64,000 nt of DNA, from assembly GCA_051362555.1 (NCBI GenBank), contig CM120647.1:13926651-13990650 (forward strand), in the 5' to 3' direction. This DNA is from Lingula anatina. Its lineage: Eukaryota > Animalia > Brachiopoda. Shown piece by piece: positions 1 through 54,114 of the stretch. Position 1 is the stretch's first letter. Each line of letters opens with the position of its first letter. The notes below the pieces were generated by a model that was not told where the DNA came from, made no database searches, and worked only from the letters and a program-made list of their open reading frames with translations. The position numbers and the translations under genes were made by a program.

Positions 1-510
1 GCTAAAATAGAATTGATACCAATGAGTTATACTCTTTAGTAGTAGGAGATGACCAATGTATTTGCATGACAAACCATTCGACAATTTTATAATGGTTTGA
101 ATTGTGTCTTTGGTTTTCAATCAAATTCGTATTGAACAATCCAGAAAAATATCACTCACCGGGCATACATAAGCCTGTCATTTCGGATACAGCTTCCCCA
201 TAACCACAAGCCAACTTGCCAGGTTCGTATGTTGCATCTACTAAGTTAATAGCAGGGCAATCTTTGGTAGCCTCCATCTCCCACGCAGCTATAGACATAT
301 TGGACATTGCTTCCCTTCTGAAATACTCTAACATGTTTTGGCCACAGCGTTCAACATGGTGAGCCAGAAGTGTCGTGTCATCATCCTCGGCATACAACTT
401 CATTTTCATCTTCAATACCAAGTTGACCTAAAAAGGTTAGGACATTATGCTTAAAACACTGCTTTCCATAGGTAAGACCTTCAAAATTAACCAACTTAAG
501 TCAGTGTTGG

Positions 511-604
<94 letters not shown>

Positions 605-3600
605 CTGAACACGGAGATCGGAAGTAGTTTGAGCCCTTGACATTAAATTGCTTGACAGTGGGTGTATTTCTTTTCAGCACTCGCCTTACACATAATGCCA
701 ATAACTTACATAATTGCCTTCTGCCATTGCATACACTCCAGTGACCATGCTGTGAGTAGACAGTTCTCCCTCACACACGTACTGTGACAACTGTGTCATG
801 TTTTGGCTCATGTCATTGGTGGCAAACCACATTTTTACACCTTCCTCCAATGATCCAAGGCAGCTTTGAGATACATTTGTTCCAGCATCAAGCTTGATGT
901 GCTGGGTTACCAAAATGCCTGAAACATAATTTGATGATCAGGAAAATTGCCCACTTTTCCATATTTTACATGTCAAAGGTAATGCTTTTGTTACAAATTG
1001 TTCAAATGTACAGAAAGCATTTAAAATGTTGAAAGGAACTGATTAAACTGCCGTTTTCTTAAATGCATACCTGGTGTTTCTCCCTTTGGTTCAACATTTG
1101 ACCCTGGAAATACAAAGATCATTTCAATACCATTGCCGATTCAAGGTCAATAAAATGCACCAACATGTTCAAATGTTTACGTGGGTACCAATGGAGCGCT
1201 CACTACAATTTACTTCAATTAAGCCTCATCTCAAAGACTGCGTGTATTTTGTCAATAAGTCAAAGTGTGGATACTATCACAATACTCTTTACTCTTGGCA
1301 AACATCGACTTAAACCTATATCTGAATGGTGTTATGTTTGTCAAAAAAATACTTACGGCTTTCATTGCAGAATCGGCCAAAGTAGCCATCATAGCATTTA
1401 CAGGAATAATCAACTTCACCCCTTGGCATACATTCACCCATGACACATCGGTTGGCATGACAAGCTCTTGGCCCTAAAACATCCATTTTGAATGTTTACA
1501 GTAACTATAGATCAAAAGTTTATTCACTGACTCGTTACTTCTTTCATGGCTTTTTGCATTGACAAGAGTGCAGAGATCAATTTTGAATGTAGATAACAAA
1601 CGGATTCGAACTTACTAAAATGACATTTGTCAGTCTTTTCCTCATAAATGTATCCTCTGGCAGTGCAGTTCTTTAAACCAGTGTAGTATTGGGATGGGCC
1701 AGAACTTCGTAGATCTGGGCATTTACCAGAAGTTGCATTGCCCATTCCTGAAACATTCATTAAACTCAATTAAAAATGCTTCGAAGTGTATCATTTGTGT
1801 CCCTTTAATATGACTTGCTGTCATCTATACATGACAGACGTGCTAACGGCCTTTCAATGACTCGTCTACACTCGATAAAATGAAATGTTCTATTTATATG
1901 TCATTATCTAATATTTCAATCTTCACCTGCTATTTGCAGTTGCACTTGTCCTATACTATTTTAAAATTATAAACTTAGTGGTGTCCTCAAAGGACCCATC
2001 ACTATTATTTTACATTTTGAGTTGAAACTCAAAACGATCTTTATTACCTCCAATGAGGTCTTCTTTTGGCAGGTTCGCCTGGAAGGCCTTTGCAAATTTA
2101 TTCAGGCAATCATTGTAGTCATCCTCAGAAACGGTTCCATTTTGAAGCACAATTCCAGATATAATCACCTTTGACTGAAAAAGTTCAAAAGTCGGTTACA
2201 AAGAAATAACAGCATCTACGTGCAATCAAGTAAGCCATTTTAATTTGATATCAATGTTCTTATTTGCTTAAACACAGAAGGATATGACAAAAAGACATAG
2301 CTCAAAATAAATTGCTTACCATGTGCCCAGAGGTCTCGAGGTGAACAAGCGGCCATCCTGGTACCCCCGTAATTACCATTTCATCAGAGTAGCAGGTCAC
2401 CATCAGCAAGTGATTGATAGCCTTGGCATGCTCTTCAATGCGCATGCTCATAATTGAACCATACGACATACTGCACTCTTCAGATATAGAAGTGTTCCTG
2501 GCACTGCTTGCATTAAACCACAGCACCACTATATTGGAGGGCGCTAAAATAGAATTGATACCAATGAGTTATACTCTTTAGTAGCAGGAGATGACCAATG
2601 TATTTGCATGACAAACCATTCGACAATTTTATAATGGTTTGAATTGTGTCTTTGGTTTTCAATCAAGTTCGTATTGAACAATCCAGGAAAATATCACTCA
2701 CCGGGCATACATAAGCCTGTCATTTCGGATACAGCTTTCCCATAACCACAAGCCAACTTGCCAGGTTCGTATGTTGCATCTACTAAGTTCATAGCAGGGC
2801 AATCTTTGGTAGCCTCCATCTCCCACGCAGCTATAGACATATTGGACATTGCTTCCCTTCTGAAATACTCTAACATGTTTTGGCCACAGCGTTCAACATG
2901 GTGAGCCAGAAGTGTCGTGTCATCATCCTCGGCATACAACTTCATTTTCATCTTCAATACCAAGTTGACCTAAAAAGGTTAGGACATTATGCTTAAAACA
3001 CTGCTTTCCATAGGTAAGACCTTCAAAATTAACCAACTTAAGTCAGCGTTGGTAATATATATATATATATATATATTTTTTTTTTTTTCTGAACACGGAG
3101 GTCAGAAGTAGTTTGAGCCCTTGACATTAAATTGCTTGACAGTGGGTGTATTTCTTTTCAGCACTCGCCTTACACATAATGCCAATAACTTACATAATTG
3201 CCTTCTGCCATTGCATACACTCCAGTGACCATGCTGTGAGTAGACAGTTCTCCCTCACACACGTACTGTGACAACTGTGTCATGTTTTGGCTCATGTCAT
3301 TGGTGGCAAACCACATTTTTACACCTTCCTCCAATGATCCAAGGCAGCTTTGAGATACATTTGTTCCAGCATCAAGCTTGATGTGCTGGGTTACCAAAAT
3401 GCCTGAAACATAATTTGATGATCAGGAAAATTGCCCACTTTTCCATATTTTACATGTCAAAGGTAATGCTTTTGTTACAAATTGTTCAAATGTACAGAAA
3501 GCATTTAAAATGTTGAAAGGAACTGATTAAACTGCCGTTTTCTTAAATGCATACCTGGTGTTTCTCCCTTTGGTTCAACATTTGACCCTGGAAATACAAA

Positions 3601-6600
3601 GATCATTTCAATACCATTGCCGATTCAAGGTCAATAAAATGCACCAACATGTTCAAATGTTTACGTGGGTACCAATGGAGCGCTCACTACAATTTACTTC
3701 AATTAAGCCTCATCTCAAAGACTGCATGTATTTTGTCAATAAGTCAAAGTGTGGATACTATCACAATACTCTTTACTCTTGGCAAACATCGACTTAAACC
3801 TATATCTGAATGGTGTTATGTTTGTCAAAAAAATACTTACGGCTTTCATTGCAGAATCGGCCAAAGTAGCCATCATAGCATTTACAGGAATAATCAACTT
3901 CACCCCTTGGCATACATTCACCCATGACACATCGGTTGGCATGACAAGCTCTTGGCCCTAAAACATCCATTTTGAATGTTTACAGTAACTATAGATCAAA
4001 AGTTTATTCACTGACTCGTTACTTCTTTCATGGCTTTTTGCATTGACAAGAGTGCAGAGATCAATTTTGAATGTAGATAACAAACGGATTCGAACTTACT
4101 AAAATGACATTTGTCAGTCTTTTCCTCATAAATGTATCCTCTGGCAGTGCAGTTCTTTAAACCAGTGTAGTATTGGGATGGGCCAGAACTTCGTAGATCT
4201 GGGCATTTACCAGAAGTTGCATTGCCCATTCCTGAAACATTCATTAAACTCAATTAAAAATGCTTCGAAGTGTATCATTTGTGTCCCTTTAATATGACTT
4301 GCTGTCATCTATACATGACAGACGTGCTAACGGCCTTTCAATGACTCGTCTACACTCGATAAAATGAAATGTTCTATTTATATGTCATTATCTAATATTT
4401 CAATCTTCACCTGCTATTTGCAGTTGCACTTGTCCTATACTATTTTAAAATTATAAACTTAGTGGTGTCCTCAAAGGACCCATCACTATTATTTTACATT
4501 TTGAGTTGAAACTCAAAACGATCTTTATTACCTCCAATGAGGTCTTCTTTTGGCAGGTTCGCCTGGAAGGCCTTTGCAAATTTATTCAGGCAATCATTGT
4601 AGTCATCCTCAGAAACGGTTCCATTTTGAAGCACAATTCCAGATATAATCACCTTTGACTGAAAAAGTTCAAAAGTCGGTTACAAAGAAATAACAGCATC
4701 TACGTGCAATCAAGTAAGCCATTTTAATTTGATATCAATGTTCTTATTTGCTTAAACACAGAAGGATATGACAAAAAGACATAGCTCAAAATAAATTGCT
4801 TACCATGTGCCCAGAGGTCTCGAGGTGAACAAGCGGCCATCCTGGTACCCCCGTAATTACCATTTCATCAGAGTAGCAGGTCACCATCAGCAAGTGATTG
4901 ATAGCCTTGGCATGCTCTTCAATGCGCATGCTCATAATTGAACCATACGACATACTGCACTCTTCAGATATAGAAGTGTTCCTGGCACTGCTTGCATTAA
5001 ACCACAGCACCACTATATTGGAGGGCGCTAAAATAGAATTGATACCAATGAGTTATACTCTTTAGTAGCAGGAGATGACCAATGTATTTGCATGACAAAC
5101 CATTCGACAATTTTATAATGGTTTGAATTGTGTCTTTGGTTTTCAATCAAGTTCGTATTGAACAATCCAGGAAAATATCACTCACCGGGCATACATAAGC
5201 CTGTCATTTCGGATACAGCTTTCCCATAACCACAAGCCAACTTGCCAGGTTCGTATGTTGCATCTACTAAGTTCATAGCAGGGCAATCTTTGGTAGCCTC
5301 CATCTCCCACGCAGCTATAGACATATTGGACATTGCTTCCCTTCTGAAATACTCTAACATGTTTTGGCCACAGCGTTCAACATGGTGAGCCAGAAGTGTC
5401 GTGTCATCATCCTCGGCATACAACTTCATTTTCATCTTCAATACCAAGTTGACCTAAAAAGGTTAGGACATTATGCTTAAAACACTGCTTTCCATAGGTA
5501 AGACCTTCAAAATTAACCAACTTAAGTCAGCGTTGGTAATATATATATATATATATATATTTTTTTTTTTTTCTGAACACGGAGGTCAGAAGTAGTTTGA
5601 GCCCTTGACATTAAATTGCTTGACAGTGGGTGTATTTCTTTTCAGCACTCGCCTTACACATAATGCCAATAACTTACATAATTGCCTTCTGCCATTGCAT
5701 ACACTCCAGTGACCATGCTGTGAGTAGACAGTTCTCCCTCACACACGTACTGTGACAACTGTGTCATGTTTTGGCTCATGTCATTGGTGGCAAACCACAT
5801 TTTTACACCTTCCTCCAATGATCCAAGGCAGCTTTGAGATACATTTGTTCCAGCATCAAGCTTGATGTGCTGGGTTACCAAAATGCCTGAAACATAATTT
5901 GATGATCAGGAAAATTGCCCACTTTTCCATATTTTACATGTCAAAGGTAATGCTTTTGTTACAAATTGTTCAAATGTACAGAAAGCATTTAAAATGTTGA
6001 AAGGAACTGATTAAACTGCCGTTTTCTTAAATGCATACCTGGTGTTTCTCCCTTTGGTTCAACATTTGACCCTGGAAATACAAAGATCATTTCAATACCA
6101 TTGCCGATTCAAGGTCAATAAAATGCACCAACATGTTCAAATGTTTACGTGGGTACCAATGGAGCGCTCACTACAATTTACTTCAATTAAGCCTCATCTC
6201 AAAGACTGCATGTATTTTGTCAATAAGTCAAAGTGTGGATACTATCACAATACTCTTTACTCTTGGCAAACATCGACTTAAACCTATATCTGAATGGTGT
6301 TATGTTTGTCAAAAAAATACTTACGGCTTTCATTGCAGAATCGGCCAAAGTAGCCATCATAGCATTTACAGGAATAATCAACTTCACCCCTTGGCATACA
6401 TTCACCCATGACACATCGGTTGGCATGACAAGCTCTTGGCCCTAAAACATCCATTTTGAATGTTTACAGTAACTATAGATCAAAAGTTTATTCACTGACT
6501 CGTTACTTCTTTCATGGCTTTTTGCATTGACAAGAGTGCAGAGATCAATTTTGAATGTAGATAACAAACGGATTCGAACTTACTAAAATGACATTTGTCA

Positions 6601-8020
6601 GTCTTTTCCTCATAAATGTATCCTCTGGCAGTGCAGTTCTTTAAACCAGTGTAGTATTGGGATGGGCCAGAACTTCGTAGATCTGGGCATTTACCAGAAG
6701 TTGCATTGCCCATTCCTGAAACATTCATTAAACTCAATTAAAAATGCTTCGAAGTGTATCATTTGTGTCCCTTTAATATGACTTGCTGTCATCTATACAT
6801 GACAGACGTGCTAACGGCCTTTCAATGACTCGTCTACACTCGATAAAATGAAATGTTCTATTTATATGTCATTATCTAATATTTCAATCTTCACCTGCTA
6901 TTTGCAGTTGCACTTGTCCTATACTATTTTAAAATTATAAACTTAGTGGTGTCCTCAAAGGACCCATCACTATTATTTTACATTTTGAGTTGAAACTCAA
7001 AACGATCTTTATTACCTCCAATGAGGTCTTCTTTTGGCAGGTTCGCCTGGAAGGCCTTTGCAAATTTATTCAGGCAATCATTGTAGTCATCCTCAGAAAC
7101 GGTTCCATTTTGAAGCACAATTCCAGATATAATCACCTTTGACTGAAAAAGTTCAAAAGTCGGTTACAAAGAAATAACAGCATCTACGTGCAATCAAGTA
7201 AGCCATTTTAATTTGATATCAATGTTCTTATTTGCTTAAACACAGAAGGATATGACAAAAAGACATAGCTCAAAATAAATTGCTTACCATGTGCCCAGAG
7301 GTCTCGAGGTGAACAAGCGGCCATCCTGGTACCCCCGTAATTACCATTTCATCAGAGTAGCAGGTCACCATCAGCAAGTGATTGATAGCCTTGGCATGCT
7401 CTTCAATGCGCATGCTCATAATTGAACCATACGACATACTGCACTCTTCAGATATAGAAGTGTTCCTGGCACTGCTTGCATTAAACCACAGCACCACTAT
7501 ATTGGAGGGCGCTAAAATAGAATTGATACCAATGAGTTATACTCTTTAGTAGCAGGAGATGACCAATGTATTTGCATGACAAACCATTCGACAATTTTAT
7601 AATGGTTTGAATTGTGTCTTTGGTTTTCAATCAAGTTCGTATTGAACAATCCAGGAAAATATCACTCACCGGGCATACATAAGCCTGTCATTTCGGATAC
7701 AGCTTTCCCATAACCACAAGCCAACTTGCCAGGTTCGTATGTTGCATCTACTAAGTTCATAGCAGGGCAATCTTTGGTAGCCTCCATCTCCCACGCAGCT
7801 ATAGACATATTGGACATTGCTTCCCTTCTGAAATACTCTAACATGTTTTGGCCACAGCGTTCAACATGGTGAGCCAGAAGTGTCGTGTCATCATCCTCGG
7901 CATACAACTTCATTTTCATCTTCAATACCAAGTTGACCTAAAAAGGTTAGGACATTATGCTTAAAACACTGCTTTCCATAGGTAAGACCTTCAAAATTAA
8001 CCAACTTAAGTCAGCGTTGG

Positions 8021-8119
<99 letters not shown>

Positions 8120-11100
8120 CTGAACACGGAGATCGGAAGTAGTTTGAGCCCTTGACATTAAATTGCTTGACAGTGGGTGTATTTCTTTTCAGCACTCGGC
8201 TTACACATAATGCCAATAACTTACATAATTGCCTTCTGCCATTGCATACACTCCAGTGACCATGTTGTGAGTAGACAGTTCTCCCTCACACACGTACTGT
8301 GACAACTGTGTCAGGTTTTGGCTCATGTCATTGGTGGCAAACCACATTTTTACACCTTCCTCCAATGATCCAAGGCAGCTTTGAGATACATTTGTTCCAG
8401 CATCAATCTTGATGTGCTGGGTTACCAAAATGCCTGAAACATAATTTGATGATCAGGAAAATTGCCCACTTTTCCATATTTTACATGTCAAAGGTAATGC
8501 TTTTGTTACAAGTGTTCAAATGTACAGAAAGCATTTAAAATGTTGAAAGGAACTGATTAAACTGCCGTTTTCTTAAATGCATACCTGGTGTTTCTCCCTT
8601 TGGTTCAACATTTGACCCTGGAAATACAAAGATCATTTCAATACCATTGCCGATTCAAGGTCAATAAAATGCACCAACATGTTCAAATGTTTACGTGGGT
8701 ACCAATGGAGCGCTCACTACAATTTACTTCAATTAAGCCTCATCTCAAAGACTGCGTGTATTTTGTCAATAAGTCAAAGTGTGGATACTATCACAATACT
8801 CTTTACTCTTGGCAAACATCGACTTAAACCTATATCTGAATGGTGTTATGTTTGTCAAAAAAATACTTACGGCTTTCATTGCAGAATCGGCCAAAGTAGC
8901 CATCATAGCATTTACAGGAATAATCAACTTCACCCCTTGGCATACATTCACCCATGACACATCGGTTGGCATGACAAGCTCTTGGCCCTAAAACATCCAT
9001 TTTGAATGTTTACAGTAACTATAGATCAAAAGTTTATTCACTGACTCGTTACTTCTTTCATGGCTTTTTGCATTGACAAGAGTGCAGAGATCAATTTTGA
9101 ATGTAGATAACAAACGGATTCGAACTTACTAAAATGACATTTGTCAGTCTTTTCCTCATAAATGTATCCTCTGGCAGTGCAGTTCTTTAAACCAGTGTAG
9201 TATTGCGATGGGCCAGAACTTCGTAGATCTGGGCATTTACCAGAAGTTGCATTGCCCATTCCTGAAACATTCATTAAACTCAATTAAAAATGCTTCGAAG
9301 TGTATCATTTGTGTCCCTTTAATATGACTTGCTGTCATCTATACATGACAGACGTGCTTACGGCCTTTCAATGACTCGTCTACACTCGATAAAATGAAAT
9401 GTTCTATTTATATGTCATTATCTAATATTTCAATCTTCACCTGCTATTTGCAGTTGCACTTGTCCTATACTATTTTAAAATTATAAACTTAGTGGTGTCC
9501 TCAAAGGACCCATCACTATTATTTTACATTTTGAGTTGAAACTCAAAACGATCTTTATTACCTCCAATGAGGTCTTCTTTTGGCAGGTTCGCCTGGAAGG
9601 CCTTTGCAAATTTATTCAGGCAATCATTGTAGTCATCCTCAGAAACGGTTCCATTTTGAAGCACAATTCCAGATATAATCACCTTTGACTGAAAAAGTTC
9701 AAAAGTCGGTTACAAAGAAATAACAGCATCTACGTGCAATCAAGTAAGCCATTTTAATTTGATATCAATGTTCTTTTTTGCTTAAACACAGAAGGATATG
9801 ACAAAAAGACATAGCTCAAAATAAATTGCTTACCATGTGCCCAGAGGTCTCGAGGTGAACAAGCGGCCATCCTGGTACCCCCGTAATTACCATTTCATCA
9901 GAGTAGCAGGTCACCATCAGCAAGTGATTGATAGCCCTGGCATGCTCTTCAATGCGCATGCTCATAATTGAACCATACGACATACTGCACTCGTCAGATA
10001 TAGAAGTGTTCCTGGCACTGCTTGCATTAAACCACAGCACCACTATATTGGAGGGCGCTAAAATAGAATTGATACCAATGAGTTATACTCTTTAGTAGCA
10101 GGAGATGACCAATGTATTTGCATGACAAACCATTCGACAATTTTATAATGGTTTGAATTGTGTCTTTGGTTTTCAATCAAGTTCGTATTGAACAATCCAG
10201 GAAAATATCACTCACCGGGCATACATAAGCCTGTCATTTCGGATACAGCTTCCCCATAACCACAAGCCAACTTGCCAGGTTCGTATGTTGCATCTACTAA
10301 GTTCATAGCAGGGCAATCTTTGGTAGCCTCCATCTCCCACGCAGCTATAGACATATTGGACATTGCTTCCCTTCTGAAATACTCTAACATGTTTTGGCCA
10401 CAGCGTTCAACATGGTGAGCCAGAAGTGTCGTGTCATCATCCTCGGCATACAACTTCATTTTCATCTTCAATACCAAGTTGACCTAAAAAGGTTAGGACA
10501 TTTTGCTTAAAATACTGCTTTCCATAGGTAAGACCTTCAAAATTAACCAACTTAAGTTAGCGTTGGTAATATATATATATATATATATTTTTTTTTTTTT
10601 TCTGAACACGGAGATCGGAAGTAGTTTGAGCCCTTGACATTAAATTGCTTGACAGTGGGTGTATTTCTTTTCAGCACTCGCCTTACACATAATGCCAATA
10701 ACTTACATAATTGCCTTCTGCCATTGCATACACTCCAGTGACCATGTTGTGAGTAGACAGTTCTCCCTCACACACGTACTGTGACAACTGTGTCAGGTTT
10801 TGGCTCATGTCATTGGTGGCAAACCACATTTTTACACCTTCCTCCAATGATCCAAGGCAGCTTTGAGATACATTTGTTCCAGCATCAAGCTTGATGTGCT
10901 GGGTTACCAAAATGCCTGAAACATAATTTGATGATCAGGAAAATTGCCCACTTTTCCATATTTTACATGTCAAAGGTAATGCTTTTGTTACAAGTGTTCA
11001 AATGTACAGAAAGCATTTAAAATGTTGAAAGGAACTGATTAAACTGCCGTTTTCTTAAATGCATACCTGGTGTTTCTCCCTTTGGTTCAACATTTGACCC

Positions 11101-13050
11101 TGGAAATACAAAGATCATTTCAATACCACTGCCGATTCAAGGTCAATAAAATGCACCAACATGTTCAAATGTTTACGTGGGTACCAATGGAGCGCTCACT
11201 ACAATTTACTTCAATTAAGCCTCATCTCAAAGACTGCGTGTATTTTGTCAATAAGTCAAAGTGTGGATACTATCACAATACTCTTTACTCTTGGCAAACA
11301 TCGACTTAAACCTATATCTGAATGGTGTTATGTTTGTCAAAAAAATACTTACGGCTTTCATTGCAGAATCGGCCAAAGTAGCCATCATAGCATTTACAGG
11401 AATAATCAACTTCACCCCTTGGCATACATTCACCCATGACACATCGGTTGGCATGACAAGCTCTTGGCCCTAAAACATCCATTTTGAATGTTTACAGTAA
11501 CTATAGATCAAAAGTTTATTCACTGACTCGTTACTTCTTTCATGGCTTTTTGCATTGACAAGAGTGCAGAGATCAATTTTGAATGTAGATAACAAACGGA
11601 TTCGAACTTACTAAAATGACATTTGTCAGTCTTTTCCTCATAAATGTATCCTCTGGCAGTGCAGTTCTTTAAACCAGTGTAGTATTGCGATGGGCCAGAA
11701 CTTCGTAGATCTGGGCATTTACCAGAAGTTGCATTGCCCATTCCTGAAATATTCATTAAACTCAATTAAAAATGCTTCGAAGTGTATCATTTGTGTCCCT
11801 TTAATATGACTTGCTGTCATCTATACATGACAGGCATGTGCTTACGGCCTTTCAATGACTCGTCTACACTCGATAAAATGAAATGTTCTATTTATATGTC
11901 ATTATCTAATATTTCAATCTTCACCTGCTATTTGCAGTTGCACTTGTCCTATACTATTTTAAAATTATAAACTTAGTGGTGTCCTCAAAGGACCCATCAC
12001 TATTATTTTACATTTTGAGTTGAAACTCAAAACGATCTTTATTACCTCCAATGAGGTCTTCTTTTGGCAGGTTCGCCTGGAAGGCCTTTGCAAATTTATT
12101 CAGGCAATCATTGTAGTCATCCTCAGAAACGGTTCCATTTTGAATCACAATTCCAGATATAATCACCTTTGACTGAAAAAGTTCAAAAGTCGGTTACAAA
12201 GAAATAACAGCATCTACGTGCAATCAAGTAAGCCATTTTAATTTGATATCAATGTTCTTTTTTGCTTAAACACAGAAGGATATGACAAAAAGACATAGCT
12301 CAAAATAAATTGCTTACCATGTGCCCAGAGGTCTCGAGGTGAACAAGCGGCCATCCTGGTACCCCCGTAATTACCATTTCATCAGAGTAGCAGGTCACCA
12401 TCAGCAAGTGATTGATAGCCTTGGCATGCTCTTCAATGCGCATGCTCATAATTGAACCATACGACATACTGCACTCGTCAGATATAGAAGTGTTCCTGGC
12501 ACTGCTTGCATTAAACCACAGCACCACTATATTGGAGGGCGCTAAAATAGAATTGATACCAATGAGTTATACTCTTTAGTAGCAGGAGATGACCAATGTA
12601 TTTGCATGACAAACCATTCGACAATTTTATAATGGTTTGAATTGTGTCTTTGGTTTTCAATCAAGTTCGTATTGAACAATCCAGGAAAATATCACTCACC
12701 GGGCATACATAAGCCTGTCATTTCGGATACAGCTTCCCCATAACCACAAGCCAACTTGCCAGGTTCGTATGTTGCATCTACTAAGTTCATAGCAGGACAA
12801 TCTTTGGTAGCCTCCATCTCCCACGCAGCTATAGACATATTGGACATTGCTTCCCTTCTGAAATACTCTAACATGTTTTGGCCACAGCGTTCAACATGAT
12901 GAGCCAGAAGTGTCGTGTCATCATCCTCGGCATACAACTTCATTTTCATCTTCAATACCAAGTTGACCTAAAAAGGTTAGGACATTATGCTTAAAACACT
13001 GCTTTCCATAGGTAAGACCTTCAAAATTAACCAACTTAAGTCAGCGTTGG

Positions 13051-13138
<88 letters not shown>

Positions 13139-16100
13139 TTTTCTGAACACGGAGATCGGAAGTAGTTTGAGCCCTTGACATTAAATTGCTTGACAGTGGG
13201 TGTATTTCTTTTCAGCACTCGCCTTACACATAATGCCAATAACTTACATAATTGCCTTCTGCCATTGCATACACTCCAGTGACCATGTTGTGAGTAGACA
13301 GTTCTCCCTCACACACGTACTGTGACAACTGTGTCAGGTTTTGGCTCATGTCATTGGTGGCAAACCACATTTTTACACCTTCCTCCAATGATCCAAGGCA
13401 GCTTTGAGATACATTTGTTCCAGCATCAAGCTTGATGTGCTGGGTTACCAAAATGCCTGAAACATAATTTGATGATCAGGAAAATTGCCCACTTTTCCAT
13501 ATTTTACATGTCAAAGGTAATGCTTTTGTTACAAGTGTTCAAATGTACAGAAAGCATTTAAAATGTTGAAAGGAACTGATTAAACTGCCGTTTTCTTAAA
13601 TGCATACCTGGTGTTTCTCCCTTTGGTTCAACATTTGACCCTGGAAATACAAAGATCATTTCAATACCACTGCCGATTCAAGGTCAATAAAATGCACCAA
13701 CATGTTCAAATGTTTACGTGGGTACCAATGGAGCGCTCACTACAATTTACTTCAGTTAAGCCTCATCTCAAAGACTGCGTGTATTTTGTCAATAAGTCAA
13801 AGTGTGGATACTATCACAATACTCTTTACTCTTGGCAAACATCGACTTAAACCTATATCTGAATGGTGTTATGTTTGTCAAAAAAATACTTACGGCTTTC
13901 ATTGCAGAATCGGCCAAAGTAGCCATCATAGCATTTACAGGAATAATCAACTTCACCCCTTGGCATACATTCACCCATGACACATCGGTTGGCATGACAA
14001 GCTCTTGGCCCTAAAACATCCATTTTGAATGTTTACAGTAACTATAGATCAAAAGTTTATTCACTGACTCGTTACTTCTTTCATGGCTTTTTGCATTGAC
14101 AAGAGTGCAGAGATCAATTTTGAATGTAGATAACAAACGGATTCGAACTTACTAAAATGACATTTGTCAGTCTTTTCCTCATAAATGTATCCTCTGGCAG
14201 TGCAGTTCTTTAAACCAGTGTAGTATTGCGATGGGCCAGAACTTCGTAGATCTGGGCATTTACCAGAAGTTGCATTGCCCATTCCTGAAATATTCATTAA
14301 ACTCAATTAAAAATGCTTCGAAGTGTATCATTTGTGTCCCTTTAATATGACTTGCTGTCATCTATACATGACAGGCATGTGCTTACGGCCTTTCAATGAC
14401 TCGTCTACACTCGATAAAATGAAATGTTCTATTTATATGTCATTATCTAATATTTCAATCTTCACCTGCTATTTGCAGTTGCACTTGTCCTATACTATTT
14501 TAAAATTATAAACTTAGTGGTGTCCTCAAAGGACCCATCACTATTATTTTACATTTTGAGTTGAAACTCAAAACGATCTTTATTACCTCCAATGAGGTCT
14601 TCTTTTGGCAGGTTCGCCTGGAAGGCCTTTGCAAATTTATTCAGGCAATCATTGTAGTCATCCTCAGAAACGGTTCCATTTTGAAGCACAATTCCAGATA
14701 TAATCACCTTTGACTGAAAAAGTTCAAAAGTCGGTTACAAAGAAATAACAGCATCTACGTGCAATCAAGTAAGCCATTTTAATTTGATATCAATGTTCTT
14801 TTTTGCTTAAACACAGAAGGATATGACAAAAAGACATAGCTCAAAATAAATTGCTTACCATGTGCCCAGAGGTCTCGAGGTGAACAAGCGGCCATCCTGG
14901 TACCCCCGTAATTACCATTTCATCAGAGTAGCAGGTCACCATCAGCAAGTGATTGATAGCCCTGGCATGCTCTTCAATGCGCATGCTCATAATTGAACCA
15001 TACGACATACTGCACTCGTCAGATATAGAAGTGTTCCTGGCACTGCTTGCATTAAACCACAGCACCACTATATTGGAGGGCGCTAAAATAGAATTGATAC
15101 CAATGAGTTATACTCTTTAGTAGCAGGAGATGACCAATGTATTTGCATGACAAACCATTCGACAATTTTATAATGGTTTGAATTGTGTCTTTGGTTTTCA
15201 ATCAAGTTCGTATTGAACAATCCAGGAAAATATCACTCACCGGGCATACATAAGCCTGTCATTTCGGATACAGCTTCCCCATAACCACAAGCCAACTTGC
15301 CAGGTTCGTATGTTGCATCTACTAAGTTCATAGCAGGGCAATCTTTGGTAGCCTCCATCTCCCACGCAGCTATAGACATATTGGACATTGCTTCCCTTCT
15401 GAAATACTCTAACATGTTTTGGCCACAGCGTTCAACATGGTGAGCCAGAAGTGTCGTGTCATCATCCTCGGCATACAACTTCATTTTCATCTTCAATACC
15501 AAGTTGACCTAAAAAGGTTAGGACATTTTGCTTAAAATACTGCTTTCCATAGGTAAGACCTTCAAAATTAACCAACTTAAGTTAGCGTTGGTAATATATA
15601 TATATATATATTTTTTTTTTTTTCTGAACACGGAGATCGGAAGTAGTTTGAGCCCTTGACATTAAATTGCTTGACAGTGGGTGTATTTCTTTTCAGCACT
15701 CGCCTTACACATAATGCCAATAACTTACATAATTGCCTTCTGCCATTGCATACACTCCAGTGACCATGTTGTGAGTAGACAGTTCTCCCTCACACACGTA
15801 CTGTGACAACTGTGTCAGGTTTTGGCTCATGTCATTGGTGGCAAACCACATTTTTACACCTTCCTCCAATGATCCAAGGCAGCTTTGAGATACATTTGTT
15901 CCAGCATCAAGCTTGATGTGCTGGGTTACCAAAATGCCTGAAACATAATTTGATGATCAGGAAAATTGCCCACTTTTCCATATTTTACATGTCAAAGGTA
16001 ATGCTTTTGTTACAAGTGTTCAAATGTACAGAAAGCATTTAAAATGTTGAAAGGAACTGATTAAACTGCCGTTTTCTTAAATGCATACCTGGTGTTTCTC

Positions 16101-18072: not shown

Positions 18073-18160
<88 letters not shown>

Positions 18161-18599
18161 CTGAACACGGAGATCGGAAGTAGTTTGAGCCCTTGACATT
18201 AAATTGCTTGACAGTGGGTGTATTTCTTTTCAGCACTCGCCTTACACATAATGCCAATAACTTACATAATTGCCTTCTGCCATTGCATACACTCCAGTGA
18301 CCATGCTGTGAGTAGACAGTTTTCCCTCACACACGTACTGTGACAACTGTGTCAGGTTTTGGCTCATGTCATTGGTGGCAAACCACATTTTTACACCTTC
18401 CTCCAATGATCCAAGGCAGCTTTGAGATACATTTGTTCCAGCATCAAGCTTGATGTGCTGGGTTACCAAAATGCCTGAAACATAATTTGATGATCAGGAA
18501 AATTGCCCACTTTTCCATATTTTACATGTCAAAGGTAATGCTTTTGTTACAAGTGTTCAAATGTACAGAAAGCATTTAAAATGTTGAAAGGAACTGATT
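1..18599 (-). repeat. Intragenic coding tandem array, unit 2481-2546 bp, about 7.4 near-identical copies
   Basis: Unit starts at 1, 2543, 5027, 7511, 10057, 12541, 15082 and 17563; identity ends at 18599. Exons in the first copy: A 918-710 (209 nt), B 427-160 (268), C 2543-2320 (224), D 2174-2048 (127), E 1747-1616 (132), F 1473-1357 (117, EGF: CHANRCVMGECMPRGEVDYSCKCYDGYFGRFC), G 1103-1071 (33). The sum is 1110 nt = 370 aa, all with AG/GT borders. Confidence 0.97.
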
Positions 18600-21500
18600 T
18601 ATCTGCTTGTTGAGATACTGATAAACAACACTGTTTCACTTTCATGATATTGGTTGTTGATTTCATCATCATCATCATCATTATAATAATAATAATAATG
18701 ATGATGATGAACTTTTGTCTGTATTATAGAACTGTTTCAATAGCTCTTTGTTCCTACTAGCATATGGTTTTTGAGCTGTATGCATACCTGGCGTTTTTTT
18801 GTCTTGTCCATCTATTTGACCTATATTAATTGACGAAAAAAGTGAAAAATAGAATTATCAAATGAACAAAAACATATAACCTCATTTTCTCATAAGTCCA
18901 TGTCACCAATGAGGCCTTAAGGAAGTTGTAAGAAGGCTGAGAATTTCTGTAACAACGGTTGGGCTTCTAAAAATACATCAAGTACCATCAACAATACAGA
19001 ATACACCATGCTTGAAATTTGCTATTTGAATACAGCATACTTGCGTACTTAGGGTAGTAATTCATCATTAAAAATCCATCTGAACGTTACTGAACCAAAA
19101 TCAAAGAGCTATCTTTTGTAACAAACGGAATTGAAATGCACATATTAACTTCCCATGATGATGACTTGGTGCTGGATTATGTACATTTTTGAACTGATTT
19201 ATAGTTCTACTTCATTCCTAATATTTAACATCAGTATTTATGTCATATACAGACTTGACATTTAATATGGAATATTTCAGTTTCGAAGGTATGCCTAGGT
19301 AAAAATGCATTCTTTTTTCAAAAAAACTCCGATCTCATATAAGATATTGCATGGAGAGGTGTGTAGTCAGGTTTGTCGCTTCCAATTAACTGAATACCAG
19401 GTTTGTTGCGCTGCTGCATTATGTAATATGCAGTGATTTAATTGGGTAGTGCTCCTTTGGGCAGGTCAAAGCTTGGCTTTGGCAAAGCATGGTTCTGTCA
19501 AAAAAGTATCCATATGTCGGGAACTACTGCATAGAAGAATTTGAAATTTTGCATGCAAGTGGTCGGTTTTGCAAGGTGTAAAATGAACTAGCGGTGCTCT
19601 GCAAATTTATTAATCTGTGGCAGAAGTCAGACATTGCAAGACAGATAATTGCGCCAAACGAAACAGTCCGCACAGTTTTATAGAGTAATGCCCAGACTGA
19701 TGTACCTACACAGAGTCCACCACCAATGTATTGAAATCTTACCACCAGGGTACAGGACCCACTGTCTGTCGGGATATGCTGTTGCAACTAAGCAAAAACT
19801 ACCCAGACCGTTCAGAATTAGGGGTAAATTGCCACTAAAACGCATTTTTCAAGGCCCTTAGCGAACACCAAACTGGTTTTACCTGGTTAGAATACCAGAC
19901 GAGCTCAGGGGAACCCACTGTAAACAGCAAAACATCGTTATATGTTTCTCTAATGAATTGGGGACCCTGATCGTTTCCGAGTTGAACACTGAAACCTCGT
20001 GGCTTTCTTTATTGAGGTCAGATTTCAGCTGTACCGCTCAACCAGTCAAAACAGAGTTTACAGACATCCAGAAGAGGCCAACGACTAAGCGTGTGCCGCG
20101 TCTAAAGTGACTAAGGTCATTAACAGCGTCAGTAATTGGAGTAGATACCACATTGGTGCCAAAACGCCAAAACACCAATGATGGTCATCCACGAAAACCT
20201 GAACCAGATCAAATAAAGGAATAATCTGGGAACCACTTGACTATCATTTGATAGGGGGCACCTTAGGAACAATTTTAGGTTGCACGGTGAAATTGCCGGT
20301 ACAAACATAGCACTTTTAATAGCAGATTACTTACAGAACCAAGGGAATGAGCAGCTACCTTGGTAATCAAAATCGCCATATTGGAACCACACAGACAATA
20401 TGTGGATAGGCCATTACTCGCCGAACCAATGGCCTACATGTCCTACAACAAAACTGGACCAAATTGGACAGAGTTTGACCGATGCCTTCCAGATTATTCC
20501 AGATTGAACTCTAAAAACTTAACCCAAGGAATGCCTTACCACTTGAGAGCGCTGGTAGCAGACAGAAGAGGTCAAGCGTACAGCCACCGTTACTGTGCCT
20601 AGACACTGACATGGGGGTTCTTTGTGAAGCGTGTATCTCTTTTACATAAAAAATAATTTGAAAAATATGGAGATCCAAAATATCTCTTTTAATTGTTGTC
20701 GTATGACATAGAATAGGCAATGTGTTTTTGTTTGCTTCTCTGGCAAATTCCATTAATGAACTGATGTCACAATGACATCAAAGAGATAATTAAAAGTTAT
20801 TAAAACACGATTTTAATCCTTATTTTCATTTATCAGTCAGCAAAATAGGAAAAAAATGATGAAAAATGATTTGGAAAAAAATATTCCATATTAAATGTCA
20901 AGTCTGTATGATCATTATTTAACACAAGATAAAACAAATGTTATGCTGTTTGCTATATCATCTGTCAGGCAGTGGGTAACAACTGACGTTAGAAAGCTGA
21001 GAGGTAACCTTTAGCTACACTGCAAGCTAATGGTATGAAAACATTTTCAACTTGTGCTCAATAAGTAACATCTATGATCCAAATACCAAGCAAATGAACA
21101 ATTTTGCTCATTATTATTTATAGTTTTAACCAATCCTGGTGTAGTATACCTGGGCCGTCAGTTCCATTTATGGGCATTGATGTTGTTGTTGTCGTTGTTG
21201 CCTGAGTGGGTTTTGGGGTAGGTTCCACTTCACACGTTTTCCCACTGTAACCACTGTTACAGTCACAGCGGTAGCTATTAAGCAGGTCTTCACATGCCCC
21301 GCCATTTTTGCATGGTTTCAGACGTGCACAGTCATCGATATCTGAAAGGAAAGAGTTGAAAACTTATAAATCAGGTGTGAAGGAATATATATCTGAGCGC
21401 ACCAGGAATGGCGGTATCGATTCTGTACCCCCCCCCCCCCCTTCTTATGGCTTCCTGCTCTTGTGACTGATGTTCTTTAAAAACATCCCTGCCCTTCCCC

Positions 21501-25000: not shown

Positions 25001-26366
25001 ACCATGCTTTGCCAAAGCCAAGCTTTGACCTGCCCAAAGGAGCACTACCCAATTAAATCATTGCATATTACATAATGCAGCAGCGCAACTAACCTGGTAT
25101 TCAGTTAATTGGAAGCGACACACCTGACTACACACTTCTCCATTCACATATCTTATATGAGATCGGAGTTTTTTTTTAAAGAATGCATTTTTACCTAGGC
25201 ATACCTTCGAAACTGAAATATTCCATATTAAATGTCAAGTCTGTAGATAACGTTTTCTATATACATGTGCAAAAAAAATCTTTCAAACATGAGGGAAAAA
25301 GCGTTCTTATTCAGCTCTAAAACATATCCACTTATGATCACTCGGAAAGTAATCTGTTCATGACACGGCATTACTTTTTACACTCACTTCTGTCTGCGGT
25401 GGCGCTGCCGTGGCATTTGTATCATTACTAGGTGGTGCCACAGTAGCGTTGCTAACAGGTGCCGTGGCTTTAGCTACCTCCATAAATGCTGCCTTTGCAA
25501 ATGCCAGTAAATACTCCAATATCAGACTCCCATTTCTGAAATATTGAAAAAAGACTGATACTTAAAAAAAACATTTTCTATAAAAATGCTTAGTACTCTC
25601 GGGGAATGGCAAGATCAGCCAACGATATTTGTAGGGCTTCAATTTTTTTTTTTTTTTTTTTTTTTGAAATATGTCTCCAAGATTAACAGATCAATCACCC
25701 CACACATGCTTGCATTGTTGGTCATAAAAAGTACATAAGTTAGCTCATACTTTTCTTGATATATACTTTAATATATGTCCCACACATATCAAAAAGACTG
25801 ACCTAACTGCCGTGACTTCACATGATTGGAAAGATCCATTTAACGAACTGCTTTGATAGATAGATTGAATCTGAAATTAGATGCCATATAATCATTGCTA
25901 CATTAAATTAATTTGTTATTGGTTTATGCGAAGTTCACCTTCGTAAATGACACAACGTTATAATTCTTGGAACAGATATGTGGGTAGAATACACAGAGAG
26001 AGAGAGAGAGCGAGAGAGAGAGAGAGATGGATTAATCAAATCTACAAATAACGATATAGAAAGAACTCTTTACAGAAAAAAAGGTACGCGCGAATGCACA
26101 GAGGATGTTTGGCCCTCTGTATTTACCCTCACATGCACAGTTTTACATTATAGTTACCACTAAAACAAGCAAAGAACTAGCACGTGTACACTGACAGCGA
26201 TGCACCATGACGGAAACACATGAGGCATACGACCAAGACATGTACTCACCCCATTACAGAAAGACACAGTGAGATTGATATACTCGGGAGAAGAGGTGTT
26301 GGCCAACTCGGGAGTGTAATCAGAATTCACAGTGAGACTGTTGTTAAAGACGGCTGAAAAAAAGGA

Positions 26367-26432
<66 letters not shown>

Positions 26433-29400
26433 TAAATAAATAAATAAACACGAGACATGTGTGAACCCCATCTATGAGTTTCACGGACAGACCAATAGGG
26501 TAAGTCCGATCATTAGGAGAAGTTTATTTAAAATCTTAAATAAATAAATAAATAAATAAATAATAAATAAATAAATAAATAAATAAAGCTATGTAAGGCA
26601 TAGCTTCAATTCGGTGTGAAAAGTGAAACTTTTAATCTTATAACACATTTTTATTTCTATATATTTTTATATTTTATAGTTTTATCATATTACCCACAGT
26701 ACATACTGTCATAATATTGTTCACTGACATGCTAATGATATCAATGTAATCAAATTATATAAAAAAATGACCTTGTTCTGGTTCGGGCGCTACAGTCGTT
26801 GTGGGAACTTCAGTTGTCGTAGGGGCCTCCATCGTTGTCGAAGCTTCCGTGCTTGTCCCTTGAGAAGTTGTCAGCTCAGCAGAAGTCTGCGGCTCGATGG
26901 CGATTGTGGTCGACACTCCTGCGGTCGTTTCATCGCCTGCCTGTGCCGTTGTCTGGGCCACGGGGCCAGCAGTCGTGACGCCAGGAGTTGCTGCCTGGGT
27001 CATTGTCGTCTGCTCTGGTGCTGCGTTCGTCGTAGTTTGCGCAGGCGCGGACTCGGTGGTCGTACTTTGTGTTGTAGGAGCTTGAGAAGTGGTTGATTCC
27101 GGGGCTGAAGGAGCGGCGGTAGGCGCAGTAGTAGTCGTTGGTGTTGTAGTAGTCGTGGGTGTAGTAGTAGTCGTGGGTGTAGTAGTCGTGGTTGTAGTGG
27201 TGGTCGTGGGTGTTGTAGTCGGCGTAGTAGTGGGTGTTGTAGTAGTAGTAGTCGTCGTTGTCGTTGTCGTAGCTGGGGCCACTAAATAATCAAATAATAC
27301 GCCATAAATGTACAGTCATTTCCCCAAATTGAATTATTTGTGGGTTTGGTTCATTTCGTTTTATTCATTTCATTATTCATAGGTTTGATCCATTTCGTTT
27401 TGAAATGTAAAATAATTGAACATCTGGTTATTTTCAGAAGTTTCTACAGCTGGACGTGGCTGAGAATTAAGATTTCCTTTTTTTTTTTTTTTTTTGATCG
27501 AATGACTATTATAATAGTAACCTCAACTGGATTGGGTTGAAATTTAAAAAGTAAAATACAATATAAAAAGATCGGATACTCGCCTTCGAACTGTATACTG
27601 GCCGGCAGTATAACTATTCCTCCAAACACAGCCGCTCCTGCCGCATTGGTCCTCGAGGTCGCAGCCTCTTTTATGATCGCTGCACCTTGGGCCTTTAAGG
27701 TGGCGACATCTACAGTCCCCGAACCAGACGAAAACAGCACTGTGTAATCTACAATGACGCTTCCAGCCCTGTGAATTGTGACAGATTGGTTAAGATATAA
27801 AAAACGTCGTGTGTATGATATAACTATTGCTTAGAATTAACATTAAAATTGGCATGAAAAAAACTCACATCATAAAATGTAAAGTGAAATTTTGATAAAC
27901 CCTAAAAGCGCATTATAACTTTCGTCGAGGAGCCATACTGCTATTTATTAAACCGTTAGTGTATAAGTCTAATGTTTCAATTCAAAAAGTTATGCAATAC
28001 ACGTAACATATTAAAGAAACTTGACTTCCCATTATGCACCATGGTATTTCCCATTCAAAATGTAAAAAAAATGAATCAATAAATAAAAAAGTACGATCTA
28101 TGTATGTGTTTAATTACCAGGCTCCACAAAGGAGGTTACGTTTATACCTCCGTTTGTACCGGTAATGTGTGTTACGTCAACAACCTAACTCAAAACGTTA
28201 TAGATGGCATTTGATGAAAATTTCATAAAATGTCAGAAATGGGTTAACTTCTAAGTGATCCTTTAATTTATTAATTAAAAGTTAATTATCAGTCAATCGT
28301 ATTCTTTTGTGGAGGTCTGCGCTCTCATGGAGCTTTTCTGGTTGTACCTGAATCTGTCAACTCTGCAGCTGCTATAGGACCCGCTAAGCTGACTAGCTTG
28401 GACGGATGACTCCACCTACAAAAGCAACAAAAGCCTGGACTATAGTCTGATCAAGTGTGTTTTCGTTCAATTAAAAGACATATGGTGATTGCAAACGTTG
28501 ATGAGGTTGTTTTCATCGCTATTTTGGAGGGTGGGGGTCAGATGTAACTTATACTGTAAAAGTAAACTAATGATTAACTGTTTCTGTCCATTTACCATTT
28601 ATTGTTAAATTTTTACTTAATTTGGTACTTAACTAGGCACAATTTTATAACTCAGACAATGCAGACTTCCAATGCAATCTAGTTAATAATAAGTAGAGAA
28701 TTGACTGGGACGAAACTAGATGAAATCTCAGACAATCAACCATTTTCGAATAATTTCCAAAAATGTTGTTGGTAAAGCCCCCTTTACATTGGACGGCGTC
28801 CTTTCTGCGTCCTTTGTGCGGCCATGAAACTGGCATCGTTGTGGTCGTAGAAAAGAGGCACAAGCATTGGTTTGGTTTCAGAATGAATGCTCAATGACAG
28901 GCCAGTTGTCGGCAAGTAAAGAATTATTATTTTTTAATCTCAAACGGTGGGGGCCGTGCTACGGGACGCAGAGAGGACGCCGTTTAGTGTAAAGGGGGCT
29001 AAACCTACTTACCCCTTTACAAAACTCCGTCTCAAGTGCTATAAATCGTGCGGATGTCCTATCTGCCAGTGCAGTGGAATAATTTTGATTTGATATGGTC
29101 ATCTGACCGGTAAGAGATATTGGTTGAACTGAAAGTATAATTTTAATATATAAAATGCATTAAAATAGTACCCTTGACGTCAAAACTAGAACATAATCAG
29201 GTTAAATACTTTCTTGAGCACACTTAACCTGAGAGAAACAAATCTGTACTTACGTAATTTATTTAAAATATTGTGGGTTGTCAAATGACCTTATCTAACT
29301 GGTCTATATGACTACTTTTGGGCAATTATCCAGTCTATTTTTCTCATTAAACGTTAACCAAGTATTAGCCAAAATCAGATTTCACATTGAAGGCAGCAAT

Positions 29401-30702
29401 GTATGCTCATCATTTGTCGTTATGGCAAGCTGTCAGCTTTAATTGATCAATTTAGTGTGAGAGCACATGTGAAGTCACTAGGAACCACTAAAGCCACTTA
29501 CCTGACCCTGTGTATGGCATTTCACTTCGCGCTGAAAATAGAATTTAAGATAAAAAAATACATAATTCGTGAAAAATTAAAAACATGAACAGTAATGGTA
29601 CTTCAGTGTGTGCATCGTTATCATCCTTGTTGTGTTGTATTAATTTGAAATTATGTTATCCGGCATAGGTCCCTAAGGGATGATCCTTAAGGGAAATGAT
29701 CATACTAGTTAATTTAGATTAGAATACATAAGTTGCATAAAACATCACAATATCAGCGTGGAACCCGCTAAAGAAGAAGACAAATTAATATACACCAGTA
29801 GATCTATGATAAGAAACGTGTGTGTGGGGTCGGAGTTAACCCCCCCCCCCCCCCCCCCCCGAAAAAATAAGGCTAACATTTGCAGACGCGTCCCGAAATC
29901 CTACTCTTCATGCCAAGTGTCCGTATATAAGCTACTATGGATCAAGCTACTATGATCATGTCATAATGACACGATTACGTTTCCATGTGAAACACTAAAA
30001 ACCACCGCAACCAAATAACAGCCCTTACTTGCGAAATAGACAGCGGCGGCCACGATACCGCCTATAACAAGCAGAGCTATCAATATGGGTATAACGGCAG
30101 AGGGTGAACAGCTCCTCTTGTCTTTCTTTTTCTTCTGTCCGAACACCTCCTGGTAGCTGTCAGAGCCGGAGGATGTGGAGAGAGGGGAGCTCTTGCCTTG
30201 TTCCGCGAAGTACCCATCTTTCACGGCATAGTATGCGAGGACCGGCTGATGACGGTATTCTCCCTGTGGCCCCCTTGCTGTGGGCACCGTGTACCCCCAT
30301 TCGTCGTACCGCGGGCCTGTAAAGGCGGCGTTGTCTGTCGAGCTGCCCTGACATTCACCAAAAATAAAAATAAATAAATAAATACTGTTGATTTTTTTTT
30401 TGTTTACTGTGAATCCGGTATTAATTAGCATCCTCCCCCATTAATGCACCCTCTCAAATGTGCATTTATTTATTTATTTATTTTATGGTTATTTATATAT
30501 TTATGTAGGCCTATTTATTTTTGTTCGGCTGCCACTGGACTGATAAAAGAGAATATAAGGAAGCTCGCGTTATTAACAAACAGTAAGTTAGCTCGTTTTA
30601 GCAGGAAATTCTGATTACGAATAGCTACACAAATATACCAATGACATTCCTTACCTCGTCAACCTCATAAGGCGCTCTTCTTGATCTCTGGTCACGTGGC
30701 AT
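1..30702 (-). CDS. Giant type II transmembrane mucin-like protein (TM-SEA-Thr-rich-SEA-EGF-cbEGF-[370-aa module]x>=7.4); 3' end lies outside the window
   Basis: Phase-compatible exons with canonical splice sites: 30702-30655 (ATG, in-frame TAA upstream), 30347-30029, 29531-29502, 29128-29013, 28415-28348, 27768-27584, 27281-26772, 26353-26250, 25870-25803, 25535-25388, 22869-22692, 22307-22191, 21341-21150, 18820-18788 (2116 nt in total). Then 7 exons per tandem unit from 18474 down to 1. The spliced frame stays open, about 3450 aa in the window. Confidence 0.88.
18788..18820 (-). CDS. 33-nt linker exon (GQIDGQDKKTPG), diverged paralog of repeat exon G
   Basis: tatag|...CCAG|gtatgca; phase 1-1; same length and same donor context as exon G (RSNVEPKGETPG). 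Confidence 0.75.
19250..20906. mobile_element. Non-autonomous TIR DNA transposon (Tc1/mariner-like TA target), copy 1
   Basis: 28-bp TIR CAGACTTGACATTTAATATGGAATATTT at both ends, TA on both flanks, 1657 bp, no transposase ORF. Confidence 0.9.
21150..21341 (-). CDS. Calcium-binding EGF exon plus short Thr/Pro linker
   Basis: DIDDCARLKPCKNGGACEDLLNSYRCDCNSGYSGKTCEVEPTPKPTQATTTTTT; 192 nt, phase 1-1, AG/GT. Missed by the ORF track. Confidence 0.93.
21945..22017. repeat. (AT)n microsatellite
   Basis: Pure TA run in the intron between the two EGF exons. Confidence 0.95.
22191..22307 (-). CDS. EGF-like domain exon
   Basis: EVNYCEGVTCHNGGTCKNLAKQYRCDCVPGYDPDDDCLS; six Cys; 117 nt, phase 1-1. Confidence 0.93.
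22692..26353 (-). CDS. Second SEA domain (4 exons)
   Basis: VFNNSLTVNSDYTPELANTSSPEYINLTVSFCNG / IQSIYQSSSLNGSFQSCEVTAVR / NGSLILEYLLAF... / VNFVNLVANVIIEAI...KESVKVE. SEA-like Y-x-x-x-L-x-N-x-x-S-x-x-Y pattern and GS-hydrophobic strand; the last exon ends in a GC donor (AAG|GCAAGT). Confidence 0.8.
22842..23050. repeat. Three diverged ~80-110-bp tandem copies spanning a splice acceptor
   Basis: ctaagttgacgaagttaacctaaaat / cttagaagacgaggttaacccaaaat / ctaagtggacgaggttacctgaaat; the first two are each followed by ...aat[a/g]caagttaatcaa. Confidence 0.75.
23584..25243. mobile_element. Non-autonomous TIR DNA transposon, copy 2, inverted relative to copy 1
   Basis: Same 28-bp TIRs and TA flanks, 1660 bp; the interior is the reverse complement of 19250-20906 with scattered substitutions. 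Confidence 0.9.
26367..26424. repeat. (AT)n microsatellite followed by (TAAA)n
   Basis: Direct inspection. Confidence 0.9.
26772..27281 (-). CDS. Thr/Pro/Ala-rich mucin stalk exon (170 aa)
   Basis: VAPATTTTTTTTTTTTPTTTP...; 510 nt, phase 1-1, AG/GT; mixed Thr codons argue for coding sequence rather than a simple repeat. Confidence 0.92.
27584..29128 (-). CDS. Membrane-proximal SEA domain (3 exons) with autoproteolysis motif
   Basis: SLTGQMTISNQNYSTALADRTSARFIALETEFCKG / VESSVQASQLSGSYSSCRVDRFR / AGSVIVDYTVLF...ILPASIQFE. FRxGSVIV matches the SEA G|SVVV site; GC donor at 27583. Confidence 0.9.
28112..28343 (-). mobile_element. Helentron-associated (HINE/DINE-1-like) interspersed repeat, diverged inverted relative of 32114-32322
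   Basis: ggaggtctgcgctctc..gagcttttctggtt is close to the reverse complement of aactagaaaagcactc..gagagtgcagacctcc. Shares the tttgatgaaa core and the aaggaggtt end. Family call from memory. Confidence 0.55.
28776..29000. mobile_element. MITE, PIF/Harbinger-like
   Basis: ~37-bp imperfect TIRs AGCCCCCTTTACATTGGACGGCGTCCTTTCTGCGTCC / GGACGCAGAGAGGACGCCGTTTAGTGTAAAGGGGGCT; TAA and AAA flanks. Confidence 0.8.
30029..30347 (-). CDS. Cytoplasmic tail and signal-anchor TM exon
   Basis: ...QKKKKDKRSCSPSAVIPILIALLVIGGIVAAAVYFA; a basic cluster directly before ~22 hydrophobic residues implies N-in (type II) topology. Confidence 0.9.

Positions 30703-54077: not shown

Positions 54078-54114
<37 letters not shown>

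Follow-up and report, generated by a model that had tools for sequence, protein, structure and literature searches.

A tandemly repeated pair of uncatalogued six-cysteine domains, possibly SEA-like, in a predicted membrane mucin of Lingula anatina

Introduction

In SEA domains, according to the available part of PMC3886910, the autoproteolysis motif G^S[VIL] sits in the turn between strands beta2 and beta3, and self-cleavage leaves subunits that stay joined non-covalently. The available part of PMC10829539 describes the membrane mucin MUC16 as carrying 19 repeats of 156 aa, each a SEA domain with two conserved cysteines. Our comparisons with such proteins draw on the accessible portions of PMC6586460, 10.1101/460097, 10.64898/2026.05.06.723240, PMC7547225, PMC4595640, PMC13425148, PMC10829539 and PMC3886910. 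Here we describe a gene of animal type, containing introns and lying on the minus strand, in a 64,000-nt stretch of the brachiopod Lingula anatina (assembly GCA_051362555.1, contig CM120647.1, positions 13,926,651 to 13,990,650), referred to below as the window. Much of the gene is a tandem array whose modules encode two six-cysteine domains, A (exons A1+A2) and B (exons B1+B2+B3), which are a real, expressed and uncatalogued domain pair. An initial annotation made from the sequence had proposed two such domains per module, and all six pairs of cysteine motifs that it quoted were correct.

Array structure and transcription

The array spans window positions 1–18606 (minus strand), with repeats starting at 1, 2543, 5027, 7511, 10057, 12541, 15082 and 17563, a period of 2481–2546 bp and units that are 98–99.8% identical. 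Each module has seven exons encoding 370 aa, and eight copies of A and seven of B lie in the window. The first array element is a domain A, at 18474; at the other end the array continues past the left edge of the window, and the C-terminus lies outside it. All 51 array exon copies have an AG acceptor and a GT donor, and when joined they give 2748 codons free of stops. The array holds at least seven repeats of the A/B pair, with the copy number as assembled. The exons of one repeat, and the exon that leads into the array, are:

2543-2320, minus strand: exon B1, first part of domain B with Cys1 and Cys2; phase 1 in, phase 0 out; splice reads
2174-2048, minus strand: exon B2, encoding the central strand of domain B and its following helix, with Cys3; phase 0 in, phase 1 out; splice reads
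1747-1616, minus strand: exon B3, end of domain B with Cys4-Cys6; phase 1 in and out; splice reads
1473-1357, minus strand: EGF-like exon of the module; Pfam PF00008, E 4.4e-05, 24.1 bits against a cut-off of 21.5; splice reads
1103-1071, minus strand: linker exon of 33 nt, from EGF to the next domain A; 56 + 53 junction reads in X6
918-710, minus strand: exon A1, first half of domain A with Cys1 and Cys2; phase 1 in, phase 0 out; splice reads; strand-helix-helix-strand predicted in a low-confidence model
427-160, minus strand: exon A2, second half of domain A with Cys3-Cys6; phase 0 in, phase 1 out; splice reads
18788..18820, minus strand: first linker exon, unique in sequence and joined by splicing to the first copy of A1; X6 and X8 read ends, also in P0002 (an older database model of this gene, see below)

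Within 160–2543 the transcript reads B first, then EGF, linker and A, which places the two domains of this interval in adjacent modules. The initial annotation had counted both domains to one module; both are real, but the two copies in this interval do not share one.

Eight of the nine RNA runs listed were mapped. In X6 (566 reads) and X8 (120 reads) coverage was confined to exons. Joints with CT..AC ends were supported in X6 by 56 reads for linker–A1, 53 for EGF–linker, 62 for B3–EGF, 50 for B2–B3, 15 for B1–B2 and 17 for A2–B1, and 63 X6 reads join A1 to A2 in a backward orientation, as expected given how the stretch was cut. X6 is a stranded run with its first mates on the plus strand, which by the convention of the mapping tool indicates minus-strand RNA. 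The phase-0 introns that had been placed before the central strand of each domain were confirmed, at GNY|VNL in A by 63 reads in X6 and 7 in X8, and at GHM|SKV in B by 15 reads in X6 and 9 in X8. Loose read ends match a joint between A1 and the unique first linker exon in 9 X6 and 5 X8 reads, and 9 X6 reads at this joint against 56 at the repeated linker fit a multi-module transcript. Since reads connect exons of different modules, assembly stutter was ruled out as the origin of the domains. Module exons drew no reads in X2 and one in X3, and depth over the module was at most 0.3 in X1, X4, X5 and X7 (over a different stretch and with a different threshold from the X6 and X8 mapping). Expression is thus limited to some samples, and the 5′ splice joints remain predicted. 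Across window positions 921–1615, four X8 reads link B3 to A1 via a linker of variant sequence, leaving out the EGF exon; EGF-less modules or isoforms exist in the X8 sample.

Between array copies, exons diverge by 0.47% and introns by 0.62%, suggesting that the array expansion was recent or has been homogenised, in contrast to the old split between A and B. The A1–A2 intron (428–709 and its equivalents, 220–287 nt) contains a (TA)n tract, and changes in the length of this tract explain most of the variation in array period.

Shared skeleton of domains A and B

Domain A is 158 aa and domain B 161 aa. Their cysteines lie at positions 19, 48, 97, 126, 143 and 156 in A and 24, 51, 98, 127, 145 and 159 in B, giving spacings of 29, 49, 29, 17 and 13 versus 27, 47, 29, 18 and 14; this agreement was equalled or bettered in 5 of 1,000,000 random placements, in a post hoc comparison against a simple null. 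Global alignment brings all six cysteines into register with 27 identities in 148 columns (18%), a score reached by 8/1000 shuffles (15/2000 in a separate run). When the cysteines were held fixed and the remainder shuffled, 62/3000 shuffles matched the observed score, and all seven inter-cysteine segments scored above their shuffle means. Both domains are bounded by phase-1 introns and have their phase-0 intron between Cys2 and Cys3. Agreement in size and cysteine spacing, the phase-0 intron that they have in common, the phase-1 introns on either side and similarity beyond the cysteines together support duplication, and A and B are likely homologous in this way, although the relationship is weak at the sequence level.

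The six cysteines are retained in 8/8 copies of A and 7/7 copies of B. Reads carry 92 variants in total; among the 40 listed, none falls at a cysteine codon (about 2 expected, which alone is non-significant), 17 are synonymous against 21% expected (p 0.002) and 23 change an amino acid. This pattern points to purifying selection, though drift appears quick. Each module has nine sequons and no R-x-x-R site. Three intradomain disulfides are predicted in both A and B.

Database relatives and spread

The nearest database protein is L. anatina LOC106179617 (XP_013418787.1, P0001, 290 aa), in which exon A2 is 93% identical; it is the same gene, labelled 'uncharacterized'. P0002, an older 1076-aa model of LOC106179617, shares with the gene described here its N-terminus, stalk, SEA2, domain A and the greater part of B, with identical splice joints. 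P0001 and P0002 each hold a single partial module in which exon B2 is followed by amidase sequence, the array and exon B3 being missing. These amidase joins are likely mis-joined models, an artefact of a collapsed array. P0002 also holds an amidase-like insert ahead of the array; there is no amidase match within the window.

A phmmer search with A and B1–B2 against 1,835,955,588 representatives returned two proteins at E 0.001, P0001 and P0003. The latter is an 85-aa ENA record that is 57% identical over exon A2, keeps 4/4 cysteines and is the sole relative found outside the Lingula locus; in the cysteine-fixed shuffle test, P0003 against B gave 46/3000. Within the window, tblastn at E 1 found no A or B relative outside the array. 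The Pfam, NCBIfam and PDB sequences searched gave no named family, and no A or B exon matched Pfam. The initial annotation had spoken of an unnamed family: the absence of a name agrees with the libraries searched, but 'family' overstates a find with one relative outside the locus. ESM Atlas gave no usable match for A or B1+B2, a blank that shows neither absence nor novelty, and one metagenome scan yielded nothing among 178 stretches. In a second scan, match L001 was a chance hit, a short frame opposite a longer unrelated open reading frame (ORF), and L002 was likewise chance, in an unrelated ORF. PDB matches (E 0.003 to 1) to the MPP8 chromodomain, RAD51C and a designed helical repeat span a single helix and lack the cysteines, and NCBIfam MbpA (E 0.008–0.09) is far under its cut-off of 90; all were rejected. 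Word-based searches matched 1/17, 0/1025 and 1/6 candidates. We judge these libraries poor in eukaryotes of brachiopod grade, so a blank is no proof of a narrow range. Accessions related to LOC106179617 and P0003 were not found in the literature searched or in the supplementary file of PMC13425148, nor was a description of the domain, in a search that did not extend to the lists of divergent SEA domains by Pei and Grishin (2017), which may matter for how new the domain is.

Host protein

Another 14 exons between 30702 and 18788 bring the stop-free frame to 3454 aa. Features upstream of the array are:

30029..30702, minus strand: start exon and an exon, encoding a tail of roughly 100 aa followed by a basic patch and a single transmembrane helix at aa 101-119; same N-terminus in P0002
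27584..29128, minus strand: SEA1, membrane-proximal, three predicted exons, one with a GC donor, motif FRAG^SVIV; PF01390 E 0.0037 on the first exon, under the cut-off
26772..27281, minus strand: mucin stalk exon rich in Thr/Ser/Pro, 63% T+S+P over 171 aa by sequence composition
25388..26353, minus strand: SEA2, three exons, motif RNG^SLIL; PF01390 E 7.7e-12, 45.7 bits against a cut-off of 26.4 (in P0002)
22307-22191 and 21341-21150, minus strand: two predicted EGF exons ahead of the array; PF00008 E 2.4e-07 and 2.4e-08, phases fit

The N-terminus has no signal-like stretch, and type II topology is predicted. With its single transmembrane helix, stalk rich in Pro, Thr and Ser and SEA domain, the host protein is predicted to be a type II membrane mucin, and A and B would lie in the extracellular part of a glycosylated surface protein. 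SEA1 is similar to SEA2 (0/1000 shuffles as good); it is absent from P0002, and its splicing was not seen in the reads. The same holds for the two upstream EGF exons and for exon 22869-22692, all of which are predicted. The predicted exons ending at 27584 and 22692 have GC rather than GT donors.

An element of about 1.66 kb occurs twice in this region (19247-20909 and 23582-25245), its copies being 90–96% alike with terminal inverted repeats of 30–31 bp. The copies sit in two introns of the mucin gene, each oriented opposite to the other, on either side of three predicted exons, and attract many reads that originate elsewhere.

Relation to SEA domains, fold and alternative explanations

The Pfam SEA profile PF01390 matched none of exons A1, A2, B1, B2 and B3 at E 1. 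It was likewise blank for P0001 at E 10 and for the portion of P0002 that corresponds to A and B, whereas SEA2 of the same protein passes the cut-off. The initial annotation had noted the lack of a GSVVV motif, and indeed G^S[VIL] is absent from the hairpin of both A (AEGNY|VNLVL) and B (TSGHM|SKVII). Within A and B, GS[VIL] occurs solely inside the first predicted helix; the motif G^S[VIL] is present in SEA1 and SEA2 of the same gene. The first AlphaFold2 model of A, with a mean predicted local distance difference test (pLDDT) score of 42, places seven elements across 145 residues in the order of a ferredoxin fold, and in a fold search it matches ferredoxin-like chains along the entire domain. 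HMG-CoA reductase was dropped as a functional relative, having only a common fold in common. Exon B2 forms a strand and then a helix in both low-confidence models; the complex prediction of B1+B2 with B3 scored 0.00.

Taken together, A and B most probably represent a new type of SEA-like module, yet one outside PF01390 by profile, motif and kinship. We lean, with little more than even confidence, towards reading them as old duplicates, divergent SEA-like domains of ferredoxin type with three inferred disulfides each, that would escape cleavage and serve as stiff, N-glycosylated units for spacing or docking in the long outer arm of a predicted type II mucin. An N-terminal helix would anchor such a protein in the membrane, and the membrane-near SEA1 and SEA2 could self-cleave at G^S, the ectodomain being kept non-covalently as a force-releasable tether. 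Past the Thr-rich stalk, repeated (A-B-EGF) units without a cleavage motif would project a glycocalyx or adhesion arm, the units stapled as ferredoxin-like folds by disulfides predicted to pair Cys1-2, Cys3-4 and Cys5-6. Arm length may be tuned through recent unequal crossing-over.

Several results weigh against this reading. A second model, from a six-row alignment (pLDDT 32), makes A all-helical, so the ferredoxin/SEA-like fold put forward by the initial annotation is only suggested for A, by the first model. Sequence kinship between A/B and SEA1/SEA2 is absent, with 119 to 918 of 1000 shuffles reaching the observed scores and hhalign E 0.27 or worse, and the intron phases of A/B differ from those of SEA1/SEA2. 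The ancient duplication claimed at the outset has cysteine spacing, size, introns and the cysteine-fixed shuffles behind it, but the local A-B alignment is non-significant (301/2000 shuffles, 155/1000 in a second run), hhalign gives E 0.32, and B carries one additional phase-1 intron absent from A. These last results, with the 18% identity, are what would be expected if A and B were unrelated and agreed in cysteine count and length through convergence or pattern-matching; we consider this improbable given the spacing test, the shared phase-0 intron, the equal length and the excess in all seven segments. It is unlikely, too, that A and B are homologous but have a cysteine-stabilised, non-SEA fold of their own, the ferredoxin model being the AlphaFold2 default for alternating strands and helices. 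The disagreement of the two models, the lack of a family match in any library searched and the missing sequence or intron tie to SEA1/SEA2 fit such a fold, but the domain-wide match of the first model to ferredoxin-like chains and the SEA domains already employed by the host protein speak against it. Somewhat doubtful is the broader proposal of a new, unnamed six-cysteine module that arose by duplication in the lingulid lineage, either with a separate fold or distant enough from SEA to merit a family of its own, and that through its recent tandem expansion builds a giant, sample-restricted surface receptor with its own binding function.

Fast-evolving members of a described invertebrate extracellular domain could also have stayed beyond search reach, and the 23 of 40 listed variants that change an amino acid indicate a domain that drifts quickly. 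One candidate is the cysteine-bearing alpha/beta region preceding C-x-x-G...C repeats in proteins of the SVEP1/Uninflatable type; the Cys5-Cys6 tail (C-G-Y-G...TGLC-P; C-T-A-R-G...TDKC) looks similar to the short disulfide hairpins after such regions. This we find improbable, as phmmer returned its two matches from 1.84 billion representatives, Pfam was blank at E 10 on P0001, and the literature searched on SVEP1/uninflatable and SEA gave no such domain at the level of titles.

Neighbouring genes

Elsewhere in the window, between 39974 and 63096, matches to AIG1/GIMAP GTPases occur in six ORFs distributed over both strands (Pfam PF04548, E from 1.5e-14 to 1.7e-38), a predicted local cluster of immune GTPases. 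At 54257-55702 on the plus strand, AIG1 is fused with a Hint module (PF01079, E 3.5e-32) in one 481-aa frame; AIG1/GIMAP literature mentions Hint domains at the level of titles, so the fusion is probably known. Frames 52352-52834 and 53194-54126, upstream of it, have no informative Pfam match and may belong to the same gene.

Comparison with known systems

These findings add an uncatalogued extracellular module and correct a database gene that was truncated and fused to an amidase. Their reach is limited by the one relative outside the Lingula locus, and the roles given to A and B are putative. If the SEA-like reading is true, one protein would combine self-cleaving SEA domains close to the membrane with disulfide-locked, non-cleaving cousins at a distance from it, and the two could be compared to learn how this fold loses cleavage and mechanical weakness.

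Compared with the SEA domains of PF01390 (MUC1, MUC16, enteropeptidase), A and B lack a profile match and a hairpin G^S[VIL], and they differ in their six cysteines, their length of about 160 aa and an intron pattern other than that of the gene's own SEA domains. The divergent SEA-like domains of Notch (HD), PCDH15 (MAD12) and EpCAM/Trop2 are, in the accessible parts of the sources, juxtamembrane switches, whereas A and B lie distally, come in pairs and recur at least seven times; their six-cysteine pattern is absent from every match found. The nearest architecture in those sources is MUC16, likewise a membrane mucin with a long array of cysteine-bearing, SEA-containing repeats. MUC16 is there described as having a P/S/T linker, a membrane anchor at its C-terminus and two cysteines in each repeat, whereas the Lingula protein has six cysteines per domain, an alternation of A, B and EGF, and a predicted N-terminal anchor.
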